NCBI GenBank assembly: GCA_964016885.1
Contig: OZ024758.1
Span: 15,562,001 to 15,626,000 of the forward strand
Source: Eledone cirrhosa
Taxonomy: Eukaryota
Direction: 5' to 3'
Length of the DNA: 64,000 nt
Positions 14,501 to 20,500 of the stretch are shown in pieces (position 1 is the first letter of the stretch; every line of letters begins with the position of its first letter). Under the pieces are notes generated by a model. It searched no databases. It was not told the origin of the DNA and worked only from the letters and a program-made list of their open reading frames with translations. Both the position numbers and the translations under genes were made by a program.

Positions 14501-17500
14501 CGTCAGTATGAGCGACCGTTTAATCCTGGTTTGATCAAATGGAGGTGAGATAATTCTGGCCAGATATACATTTATATTATATTTTCATGTTAAATGCTTT
14601 ACCTCACATAATTATCTCACATTCTATCAAATCTATGAGATTTTGATATCACCTATGTTGAGAACAATACCTTAACATCAAAATGAGCAGCCAGTTACAG
14701 CCAGTTTGAAGAGAAAGAGGTGAGTTTAAATGCTAAAGGGTTAAATAGTGCTAAAAACTGTAAAAATAGTCTGCAAGAAGAAAACATTTGTTTTATATAT
14801 ATAAAAGCTGTTATTTTGTTATTTTCATTAGAAATAAACTACAGGACAATCAGACAGTTTTTAGTCATGCATACAATGAATGACCAACATGCAGTTAGAT
14901 AAATATACCTATGGGATATGTTGAGGGGATTCTGCTGCTAAGGTCCTGTTAAAAAGGAAACAACCTTTTAGCAAATGTCAACAAACAAAATGTATACATG
15001 CACAAAATTAGCATATATATATATATATATATATATATACATACATAAATATCTATATATATCTATACATACATAAATATATATATATATATATACATAC
15101 ATAAATATATATATATATACATACATAAATATATATATATATATATATATATACATACATATATATATATATACATACATAAATATATATATATATACAT
15201 ACATAAATATATATATATATACATACATAAATATATATATATATATATATATATATATACATACATATATATATATATACATACATAAATATATATATAT
15301 ATATATACATACATACATATATATATATATACATACATAAATATATATATATATATATACATACATACATAAATATATATATATATATATACATACATAA
15401 ATATATATATATATATATATATATACATAAATATATATATATATATATACATACATAAATATATATATATATATATATACATACATAAATATATATATAT
15501 ATATATATATATATATATATACATAAATATATATATATATATATGCATACATCAATATATGTATATATGCATACATAAATAGATGTATATGCATACATTA
15601 TATATATATATATATATACATACATAAATATATATATATATATATAACGAAGGAAATGTGGTAAGGAACCAGGTGGACCATAACGCACCAAAGTACTCAA
15701 TACTTGAGGTAGTAGAGTGGGTAATAGGAACCAGTAAGACCCCGACAGCTGAGCTCAAGCCGTTTCGACGGCTAATTCTGGACTAAATGAACATTTATCC
15801 TGGTATTTAAATAGCCGATCTTCTCAAGGGGTAATTCCATATATGGTCAAAGTGATTGTCAAAAATCAGTAGTAATTCTGTGGTTGCAAATTAGTAGAGG
15901 AGATGGTGGCTAAACCTGCCAGTAGGAGAAAGAGGGGAGGGGGTGGAGTAGACCCAATCAAGCGTTGGTAGTGCCAGCTACAGCTGGGCATGAGGTCAAA
16001 GAAGATACAGGGGAGGGGGAGGGGGAGGAAGTCGGAACGGTAGGTAGAACAATGGGGGGTAGAAATAGGAAAGAAAAAATACTGAGAGTGAAGGAAAGCA
16101 AATAAGTGTAAAGAAAAAATTAAATTCTACGACCTAGGTGTCAGGCTATTGTTAGGCGAGAATAAAATAAAGAAAGAAAGAAAGAAGCAAATAAATAAAC
16201 AAATAAATAAATAAAGAAATAAGTATAGAACTAGGTGGGACGAATTAGGCAAGGACCCTTTTAAGAGGTATAAGTACGTAAATGATACGGTGACTGGTCA
16301 ACAAAAGGGGCCAAAATACTAAAGAGACTACCACGAAATAAACAATAAAGGTTTCCATCCAGGGCCAGCAACGACCCAGTGCAGCAAAGTGAACTTGTAC
16401 GACATAATAATTCTGAGTCCCGAGAAAAATATATACTAATGCTAACTCTAAAAGATCTAAAACAAGCTACATGAAAGTTCGTACGAAATAAAGGTAGAAT
16501 ACGGAGAAATAAGTTCAGAATCCACCCCGCCCAGAAGAAAAGCGAAGCAAGAAATACTGAAACGAAAAAAATAAGGCATAAGTGCCACTAAGAAATATAG
16601 AGGGCACAGAGAATAGTGGGAGCGGTCGGAAAAGGGGGGCAAGTATCCGGGGTCTAAGCCAACTGCTATAAAGGGCGGAGTCCGCCAAATCTATCAAAGA
16701 CTAGGGGAGGGGGGAGTGGGGGTACTAAGGCTACATGGGGCCAAAGGGCAGCCTCGGGTGGGCGAGAAAAGACGCCGACAAAGGAGAAGAGCTGGGGTAG
16801 AAGGACAAAGGAGAGCGGGGGGAAGGAAATAAAAGATGCGATAAATGAATACAAAGAAGATCTTACGTCTTCCTTGGCAAGCAGGGGTTACCCATTGCAA
16901 AATCGGCAACTGGGGTGTTATAGCCCTAGTCTACCCCCCCGGGTCATTATGGGGTTTGAGGGCGAGGTAAGTCCTACGCAATCTATGTTTACATGCAGTA
17001 ACCAGTTCATCTTTCTTGTTTAGGAGTTGGTCCGTCGAAAACAGCATTTGTAAAGTTTCCTCCGAGCATAAATTGCACGGACGGCGTCCTCCCGTGTAAG
17101 AATTGGCTCTGGACAGTAATCTCCAAGTGAGATCATAGGTGATGTTGTTGTCCTTGAGGTCCCATATGTGGCCCGAAAGTGTAGTGGCGTGACGCCGGGC
17201 CGGGTTTCGGAAGGTATGTCTATGTTGGTATAGCCGGGTCTTGAAGTCACATGCGGTAAGTCCTATATAGGCTTTGTTGGAGGTATCCGTCCTCACGTTG
17301 CACTGGTAGATCACATTACGGTCTCTGCATCTATTGTCGAGTGGGCAAATAGATCTATCCGGGCAGTTACACCTCCTGGTCGGTTCTCCACTGCTATTTA
17401 GGTTATTTCTGCCATCGGGGTTGAGTTTTTTGTTGTTAGAGGAGACGATGTTTTGTGCGAAGTTTGGTGTAGTGCTGTAAGAGAGTTTGATGGTATTTTT

Positions 17501-20500
17501 GTTAATTATGTTGTGGTAGCGGTGTTGTAATGGGAAGTGTTTTTCAATGAGCCTAAAGAATAGTTTCCCGATGGGAGTAGTCACCTCTGCGTTGTGGGGA
17601 GGATTGAACCATGTTACATTGCGTGAGCGGCGGTGTCTCCTGCTGGTTCCGCTAATGGGATCTGGACAGTAGGATATTTCCTCCCGGAAACCACTCCGCT
17701 TGAGGGCCTGGTTGTAATAAGGCGCATGTTCATCGAATATCCGCTCATTAGCTGACAAACGGGATATGCGGAGGGAGATGTTTTTGACCAGGTTGTTTGT
17801 GATGTTCCTAGGATGGTTTGATCGGCGGTGGATGTAGTGCAGATTGTCATTAGGTTTCCTGTATGGGTAGTACAGGTCGTTTTCGAGGTCGAGGGTTACG
17901 TCCAGGAAGTTTACTCGGGTCAGGGACGTTTGTAGGGTTATTTTAAATCCCCAGTCGCGGAAGAATCTGATTAATTGTTTCCGGACCCGATCTGTACTAC
18001 TGGGGTTGTACCCTTTAAGGGTAAGGAGCCCATCATCACGGTACAATCCACCACCGAATGCAGGAAACATATCAGTGAGTTTGGCTATTAGGAATAATCC
18101 TATAAGATCAGTGACCTCCGCCGAATCCGTAGCGCCCATGCTGACGTCGAAGGGTGAGTCGGGAGCTCTTTTTATCCATTTAGAGTCGTCAAAGAGTAAG
18201 ACTGTCTTCCTGGCGTGGAGGATGATTTTTCTTTCCTGGTCGGTGATGGGCACGAGTGTTTCGGCGAAGTCCAAGGCGGCAGTAAGTAGCGGTAAGGTGA
18301 TTGAAGCATAGTAGCTCTCTATGTCGAACTGTATGAATTTAGTTTCTCGTTTATCCTCCATATTGCTGAACCAGGAGATTACTTCCTGGGTGTTGATCCA
18401 TAGGCTAAGTCGGGTGTGTTGCTTGACTTTTGGTATCACGCGGTCTAGGATTTTTTTGCTGATTCTCCCTATGTCGGACTTCGTTGGGTTAATAAGCCTG
18501 ATGGAGGGTTTACGGTCAAAATCGGATTTATGGTCCTTCAGTGTGAAGTATGGTGTCCGTGGGTCTAGAGGTTCCGTGCGGTCGGCGACCCCGAGGCTGG
18601 AGGTGATTTGTTGTCCATCTCGATTTATGTCCTCGATGCAAGAGTGGTTGGCCTTTTTATAGGTGGAGTTTAGGCTGCTCCTGATCAGTGTGTGGTATCT
18701 GTCAGGGTTGACAAAGTATAGGTTCCCAGTTTTATCCGAATGCACCATGATGTCATTTGTGTTATCATACTCTGTTAAGTTGCTACGGAGTTTTTGTAGG
18801 AATCGGTTGTGTCTGGGTTTAAATTTAATGTTCTTGACCAGTTGGAAGAGGTCATTCTCGAAGGGTGCGAGCAAGGGGTTCAGGGGCGGAGATTTGTAGG
18901 TAATAAATCCGAATCTCTCCTTGGTGCCGAAGTCTTGGTTGTCGCAATATCTGTCATAGAAAAAAGTTCTCCATCTAAGTCTTTTCGCAAATAGATCAAT
19001 TTTTTGCGTGAGCATCCGAAGGTAAAGTTTTTTCGGTGGGATTGGGATGTTCTTGGTAGAGAAGTCAATGTTGTGTTTTCGCATGGTGCGGGTGAAAAGA
19101 ATTGAGCTTAGCGGAAAAGTCTGGATACGGCGTGGTAGGGTCGGAAAGTGCTCTACTACGGGAGTAGGAGCTAGATAACGAAGGAAATGTGGTAAGGAAC
19201 CAGGTGGACCATAACGCACCAAAGTACTCAATACTTGAGGTAGTAGAGTGGGTAATAGGAACCAGTAAGACCCCGACAGCTGAGCTCAAGCCGTTTCGAC
19301 GGCTAATTCTGGACTAAATGAACATTTATCCTGGTATTTAAATAGCCGATCTTCTCAAGGGGTAATTCCATATATGGTCAAAGTGATTGTCAAAAATCAG
19401 TAGTAATTCTGTGGTTGCAAATTAGTAGAGGAGATGGTGGCTAAACCTGCCAGTAGGAGAAAGAGGGGAGGGGGTGGAGTAGACCCAATCAAGCGTTGGT
19501 AGTGCCAGCTACAGCTGGGCATGAGGTCAAAGAAGATACAGGGGAGGGGGAGGGGGAGGAAGTCGGAACGGTAGGTAGAACAATGGGGGGTAGAAATAGG
19601 AAAGAAAAAATACTGAGAGTGAAGGAAAGCAAATAAGTGTAAAGAAAAAATTAAATTCTACGACCTAGGTGTCAGGCTATTGTTAGGCGAGAATAAAATA
19701 AAGAAAGAAAGAAAGAAGCAAATAAATAAACAAATAAATAAATAAAGAAATAAGTATAGAACTAGGTGGGACGAATTAGGCAAGGACCCTTTTAAGAGGT
19801 ATAAGTACGTAAATGATACGGTGACTGGTCAACAAAAGGGGCCAAAATACTAAAGAGACTACCACGAAATAAACAATAAAGGTTTCCATCCAGGGCCAGC
19901 AACGACCCAGTGCAGCAAAGTGAACTTGTACGACATAATAATTCTGAGTCCCGAGAAAAATATATACTAATGCTAACTCTAAAAGATCTAAAACAAGCTA
20001 CATGAAAGTTCGTACGAAATAAAGGTAGAATACGGAGAAATAAGTTCAGAATCCACCCCGCCCAGAAGAAAAGCGAAGCAAGAAATACTGAAACGAAAAA
20101 AATAAGGCATAAGTGCCACTAAGAAATATAGAGGGCACAGAGAATAGTGGGAGCGGTCGGAAAAGGGGGGCAAGTATCCGGGGTCTAAGCCAACTGCTAT
20201 AAAGGGCGGAGTCCGCCAAATCTATCAAAGACTAGGGGAGGGGGGAGTGGGGGTACTAAGGCTACATGGGGCCAAAGGGCAGCCTCGGGTGGGCGAGAAA
20301 AGACGCCGACAAAGGAGAAGAGCTGGGGTAGAAGGACAAAGGAGAGCGGGGGGAAGGAAATAAAAGATGCGATAAATGAATACAAAGAAGATCTTACGTC
20401 TTCCTTGGCAAGCAGGGGTTACCCATTGCAAAATCGGCAACTGGGGTGTTATAGCCCTAGTCTACCCCCCCGGGTCATTATGGGGTTTGAGGGCGAGGTA

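Follow-up and report, generated by a model that had tools for sequence, protein, structure and literature searches.

Can a retroelement that sits inside a host gene be launched by that gene's own transcript? The question is raised by a 64,000-nt stretch of Eledone cirrhosa (GCA_964016885.1, OZ024758.1, positions 15,562,001-15,626,000, forward strand; hereafter the window), where the last intron of the gene PXK holds two identical hammerhead ribozymes that bracket a protein-coding unit on the gene's own strand. An original prediction, made from the letters of the window, proposed that PXK read-through and double self-cleavage release a unit-length RNA, which is then circularized and copied by rolling reverse transcription. 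The insertion, two arms lying head to head, belongs to a young Penelope-like retroelement of the Hydra type, and the genome record of more than 20,000 ends of its copies suggests another origin for the RNA. In the account that we favor, to which we give a probability of roughly 0.55, twin priming at two fixed sites (+20 and +100) produces head-to-head insertions, long copies arise by way of a circle, and the element supplies its own promoter. Throughout, 0 is the last base before the hammerhead cut and +1 the first base past it, and the coordinates of features are collected in Table 1.

Paired 3' ends of the two arms

Variable 3' ends had been part of the case for rolling on a circle, but the ends prove to be nearly fixed. 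In a sample of the places listed first for contig C1, 148 of 164 arms end at +20 (77) or +100 (71), and 62 of 68 head-to-head pairs combine one arm of each kind, as does the insertion in the window; five of the remaining pairs join a +20 arm to another end, and one joins two +20 ends. Both sites end in TAT and adjoin a (TA)n tract (BLAST reports +103 for the distal one by running into the TA repeat, and exact parsing gives +100). Genome-wide, exact counting returns 23,839 +100/TA junctions, older subfamilies included, and 7,506 +20/TA junctions against 15,899 copies of the +1 to +17 word, or about half. Selection on 5' ends was removed by choosing 40 loci on the +100 junction alone and counting them by hand. 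An inverted +20 partner is present in 26 of these loci, and two run off the fetched stretch.

The arms of one insertion also resemble each other. All copies of a locus have in common a total of 65 locus-private sites (6 in the window), while 160 sites differ within loci, and in 19 of 26 loci the arms are mutually closest, with every other locus more distant. Because private sites are shared within loci and arms are mutually closest in those 19, each insertion would appear to stem from one template. An A-to-I editing signature was not found in these templates, with one A>G among 46 private shared variants. We consider it likely that a single RNA is copied by two reverse transcriptases, which prime at the two fixed sites and on opposite strands of the target; that the proteins themselves act as a pair is suggested by analogy with the anole Poseidon element PAc (PMC11167929). 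That element likewise has two internal start sites of reverse transcription 3' of its hammerhead, an AT-rich target, and extension of both target strands in vitro. No difference in start site between the strands was found there, however, whereas the Eledone genome pairs one site per strand.

Head-to-head arms have been ascribed in rotifer Penelope elements to self-priming on an antisense template (PMC3846280), and the near-palindromic junctions seen here would suit such a process. Yet the two outer ends are exact, each primed on TA at a fixed site of its own, and the inner stops of the arms do not coincide; untemplated letters frequently lie between them. We regard self-priming as highly improbable for this family, and twin priming remains our reading of its paired ends.

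Template starts, the ribozyme cut and the host gene

Of the +100 arms in the 40 unbiased loci, 22 start at -33 to -44, three at the cut, 11 within the tail and four far upstream. Exact parsing, used in place of BLAST ends because many of those at -44 are extension artefacts, places the 5' limit at -43/-44 and shows peaks at -40/-39 and at -36 to -34. The same wall is seen in word counts: the -39 to -23 word inside it occurs 25,492 times and the -58 to -42 word across it 2,582 times, or 367 times when the upstream word is counted only as it stands in the window's lineage. Between -120 and +25, the only matches to the initiator consensus BBCA+1BW (taken from a literature listing) lie at -44 and -35, an outcome with a chance of about 0.009, post hoc, and they follow a TATA-like word at -69. 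Judged from sequence, it is quite probable that the wall represents run-off from the starts of a predicted promoter of the element's own.

It speaks against run-off that the wall, 11 nt in width, falls where the stem II hairpin has its apex. An alternative is that all classes of copy come from circles or long RNAs and that the wall, which ends at the hairpin loop, is a reverse-transcriptase stop at this hairpin. A second lap would then meet no RNA structure, and L163, an array of 299-nt tandem units, likewise ends at a hairpin centre. Reverse transcriptases usually stop at the foot of a helix, however. Moreover, T-run slippage and template jumps (to +161 to +918) begin at the wall, as they do at a template end, and the peaks of the ends coincide with the three pyrimidine-purine steps: in a post hoc count, 6 of 12 positions hold 85 of 131 ends. 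A hairpin stop thus seems to us improbable, and we continue to read the wall as promoter run-off.

Other copies begin at the cut. Both arms start within 14 nt around it in 150 loci, and a hand count of 50 loci listed among the 267 of a wider search around the cut found 25 in which each arm starts precisely at +1; untemplated letters separate the arms in 14 of these, and 11 are blunt. Within the 50, 6 of 100 arms reach -1 or beyond, and in none are the arms joined at the AGCT palindrome that lies 3-6 nt upstream. Because insertions begin exactly at the cut, which would be the genomic footprint of an RNA end, the hammerhead very likely cuts in vivo. To this extent the self-cleavage of the original prediction stands, while release from PXK RNA finds no support.

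That release would have PXK pre-mRNA cut at both sense hammerheads, freeing the unit RNA without an element promoter. Its sites, spacing and strand were correctly placed: 3531 nt separate the two minus-strand cuts, spanning a 190-nt leader (ATG at unit position 191), the 717-aa open reading frame (ORF) and a 1187-nt 3' region, and the RNA of some genomic copies is very likely cut there in vivo. The plus-strand hammerheads, which bracket a second intact ORF, had been overlooked. Since the same unit lies on both strands, one arm is sense whichever way the host gene runs, and the sense orientation of a two-arm insertion to PXK therefore carries no information. PXK RNA would also pass 4,843 nt of perfect antisense, which covers both ribozymes in full, before it reached the sense hammerheads; the duplex over one hammerhead is worth -189 kcal/mol, against -23 for its own fold. 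Eighteen AATAAA words precede the sense ribozymes on the PXK strand, and more than 10,000 exact hammerhead cores lie elsewhere. The commonest template start, which appears to lie at initiator-like motifs between -33 and -44, comes close to the capped internal promoter that had been named as the opposing case, as seen in genomic ends. We therefore think a PXK origin of the unit RNA very unlikely. We are highly confident that read-through of PXK is not needed, and take the gene to be a landing site only.

Long copies, tandem arrays and a candidate circle

The +101 to +117 word served to sample long copies: the first 100 of its 156 matches gave 47 loci and six arrays on contigs C1-C3, to which the window was added. 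Of the full-length arms that reach the upstream junction, 50 of 52 continue through both the junction and the wall, and the cut site shows no indel (46 by script and four, with an offset or substitutions, by eye); such seamless running from unit to unit is what a circle predicts. One of the other two stops at -39 and one at the cut; the count excludes two further arms, whose ends lie at +39 and +55. Seamless passage argues for a template with no end at +1 or -44, that is, a circle or an uncut longer RNA.

Were there no circle, long copies would come from uncut read-through or multimeric RNA, or from a short cDNA transferred by homology from one repeated end to the other, and the hammerhead would only trim. 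The anole element does use unprocessed RNA in vitro (PMC11167929), and locus L181, a full unit ending at -39, is what a linear promoter RNA predicts. Second laps are also slightly shorter than first-lap partner arms (means of 1,020, n=40, and 1,350, n=25; p 0.06). Some arrays expanded once in place, and one of them appears to be a post-insertion duplicate. In two arrays of four units, variants alternate. These last features mean that long arrays are not pure rolling products, and we dropped the four-unit arrays as proof of rolling. On the other side, just 1 of the 52 crossings ends at the wall (upper 95% bound near 10%), which is where most first passes end, and by inspection no central junction is common to two loci, although read-through daughters would at times inherit one. 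We judge long copying without a circle to be unlikely, and a hammerhead-cut RNA circle to be, on balance, a probable template; the predicted circle is thus retained for seamless long copies, though not rolling as the sole origin of arrays.

Some arrays are of interest in themselves. The alternating variants of L183-L185 and L186-L187, the two four-unit arrays, could mean that a block of two units was duplicated, that the circle was a dimer or that the pattern arises in the assembly. L163 (G000:C2:356029786-356032023) consists of seven 299-nt tandem units derived from the element. In every unit the hammerhead core is complete and stem II is 20 nt shorter; the units differ at one site, and their junction is found nowhere else in the assembly. 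It looks like a newborn non-LTR (long terminal repeat) retrozyme. In L096 (264-924) and L173 (5646-6097), repeats of about 257 and 226 nt start at the wall and carry a recurring non-parental junction, and these may be small circles or repeated template jumps.

The favored account would run as follows. Transcription would start 35-44 nt upstream of the cut, inside stem II and 3' of the TATA-like box, which the element RNA itself would not carry. Having begun in stem II, promoter RNA would contain a 5' cut site without the enzyme half of the hammerhead, and a downstream copy could supply that half; the two hammerhead halves do co-fold in computation. The hammerhead would cut this RNA by a presumed chemistry whose genomic footprint is observed. 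The protein would nick both (TA)n strands and prime at +20 and +100, a putative mechanism behind an observed structure, and the two cDNAs would join by their far ends. A template that runs from the promoter, is cut at the 3' site and so has priming sites only near the 5' end would yield the abundant palindromes of about 200 bp, while a template cut at both sites would yield arms beginning at +1. On a ligated unit circle, in turn, copying would roll on beyond the junction, and the resulting long arms would regain an upstream promoter with its TATA-like box. Only tentatively do we suggest that the genome records the full replication cycle of a protein-coding circular-RNA retroelement, including split hammerhead, circle, protein pair and rolling.

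Besides the hairpin apex and the second laps, several points weigh against this account. In the unbiased sample 11 of 40 loci are single-armed and one pairs two +100 arms. Arms are not closest in 5 of 26 loci and are tied in two, and shared private variants could have been inherited from a parent outside the sample or spread by gene conversion afterwards. The 11 blunt +1 joins could be CG microhomology. Hammerhead cleavage is not needed by the anole element in vitro, and that study has no RNA reads ending at the cut (PMC11167929), whereas genomic copies here start at it. Finally, both promoter and circle are inferred from genomic copies.

The element, its surroundings and its relatives

Assignment to the Penelope-like class, with the Hydra clade matched by motif description, is almost certain. 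Foldseek places TERT (3du5) first for the ORF model (predicted local distance difference test, pLDDT, 90.9), and D350 and D351 of its YRDD are invariant; Pfam gives no match for the 717-aa protein, and a PDB sequence search gives a weak match to a retron reverse transcriptase only. A C-terminal VIY...YIG with R, H, E and N is conserved by eye in the alignment, and the domain has no library or fold match. The ORF carries RWR (for RWK), DKT, a CxCX5C linker, CxxC and CxH, with no CCHH, and the (TA)n target is as expected for the clade. Partial tandem, inverted 5'-truncated copy, one-sided tail and a hammerhead in the repeat complete the Penelope-like hallmarks. As described, the Hydra clade (PMC8557442) shares the single ORF of reverse transcriptase and (putative in the Eledone element) C-terminal GIY-YIG nuclease, RW[K/R], DKT, the CxCX5C linker, CxxC and CxH without CCHH, the hammerhead and the (TA)n target. 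The Eledone unit is longer (3.5 kb, against generally less than 3 kb), its tail measures 80 nt against the 30-40 nt described for other clades, and its copy number is very high, mostly as palindromes of about 200 bp.

At minimum energy the ribozyme folds into a hammerhead whose core is of the U3:A8 type; stem II is long, and the loop of stem III is palindromic. Its stability is not above that of shuffled sequences (z 0.31), and no Rfam match reaches the gathering score. A G-U/G-C variant of stem III occurs in 12 of 126 copies, and exact hammerhead cores number 10,859 genome-wide. On the minus strand, the frame is open for 49 codons 5' of the ATG (19085-19231), to a TTG in the leader; alignments of relatives begin at the ATG. 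The sense 3' region (minus strand, 15833-16930) has no AATAAA or ATTAAA word, which fits a 3' end formed by the ribozyme.

The host gene matches an Octopus vulgaris protein at 94% over one exon. Its last intron also contains minisatellites at 6768-7867 (32-nt period) and 28768-29931 (48-nt period). Elsewhere in the window, near-perfect palindromes at 46488-46829, 47692-48016 and 56852-57162 have arms of 150-170 nt, a spacer of 2-11 nt and no match to the family in a search with the unit; they are possibly products of other elements.

Table 1. Features of the insertion and its host gene, in positions of the window.
Feature	Position	Strand	Remarks
Whole insertion	15644..27371		Two arms head to head, joined at 20566 in a (TA)n tract
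Left arm	15644..20566	-	Partial unit (unit positions 2240-3531), full unit and 100-nt tail
Right arm	20566..27371	+	Partial unit (277-3531), full unit and 20-nt tail
Type-I hammerhead, U3:A8 core	19270..19363	-	Cut after 19275
Type-I hammerhead, identical copy	15739..15832	-	Cut after 15744
Type-I hammerhead	23732..23825	+	Cut after 23820
Type-I hammerhead	27263..27356	+	Cut after 27351
717-aa ORF	16931..19084	-	TERT-like reverse transcriptase with putative C-terminal GIY-YIG-type endonuclease, Hydra-clade motifs
Second intact 717-aa ORF	24011..26164	+	One substitution relative to the first
5'-truncated ORF copy	20566..22633	+	
Predicted promoter in hammerhead stem II	19310..19344	-	TATA-like TATTTAAA at -69; initiator matches at -44 and -35
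Copy of predicted promoter on plus arm	23751-23785	+	
100-nt tail	15644..15743	-	Ends at distal priming site
20-nt tail	27352..27371	+	Ends at proximal priming site
PXK host gene	5276..52312	-	Exons from 52312 to 5276; last intron, ~31246 to 5570, holds the insertion

Parts of this account have precedents. A circle with more-than-unit reverse transcription has been proposed in print for Penelope-like elements since 2014 (PMC4209133) and also appears in a review (PMC6765202), and inverted arms with a one-sided tail are described in PMC8557442 and PMC3846280. The 2014 work resembles ours in hammerheads about 3 kb apart, the U3-A8 variant, circle ligation and close opposite-strand pairs; its passages on the model, by contrast, put the ribozyme's role tentatively, without in vivo evidence, and mention neither two-site priming nor a promoter position. 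Penelope of Drosophila virilis (PMC2377424), too, has a promoter in its pseudo-LTR and a partial tandem with an inverted copy, and is transcribed from its own repeat. Its promoter is described as internal, TATA-less and intron-bearing, whereas the Eledone element has a predicted TATA-like box 5' of its start. Non-LTR retrozymes (bioRxiv 10.64898/2026.07.22.740005), which derive from Penelope-like repeats, similarly form tandem units with type-I hammerheads that are thought to roll, and L163 is an array of this sort. Retrozymes are described as short and non-coding, however, while the 3531-nt unit has an intact ORF and encodes its own reverse transcriptase and putative nuclease. Literature searched on twin priming in the class and on octopus Penelope elements held no statement of +20/+100 pairing, and neither pairing per strand, cut footprint nor promoter position appeared in the literature covered, outside whose scope lay supplements and the reviews of 2005-2006. 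Against that literature, the apparent use of one priming site per strand, the genomic footprint at the cut and the predicted position of the promoter are new.

Pseudo-LTR rebuilding, head-to-head arms with a one-sided tail, and in vivo cutting are questions left open in the relevant passages of PMC4209133, PMC2377424 and PMC3846280 and in PMC11167929. The family is young and abundant enough for template ends to be read from the genome, and we provide exact coordinates. If true, the account would explain the head-to-head arms, the one-sided tail and the regeneration of the pseudo-LTR, with retrozymes born as by-products. An enzyme that primes on two strands at two sites would differ from L1 and R2 in its priming, and the family is a large source of palindromes of about 200 bp in the octopus genome.

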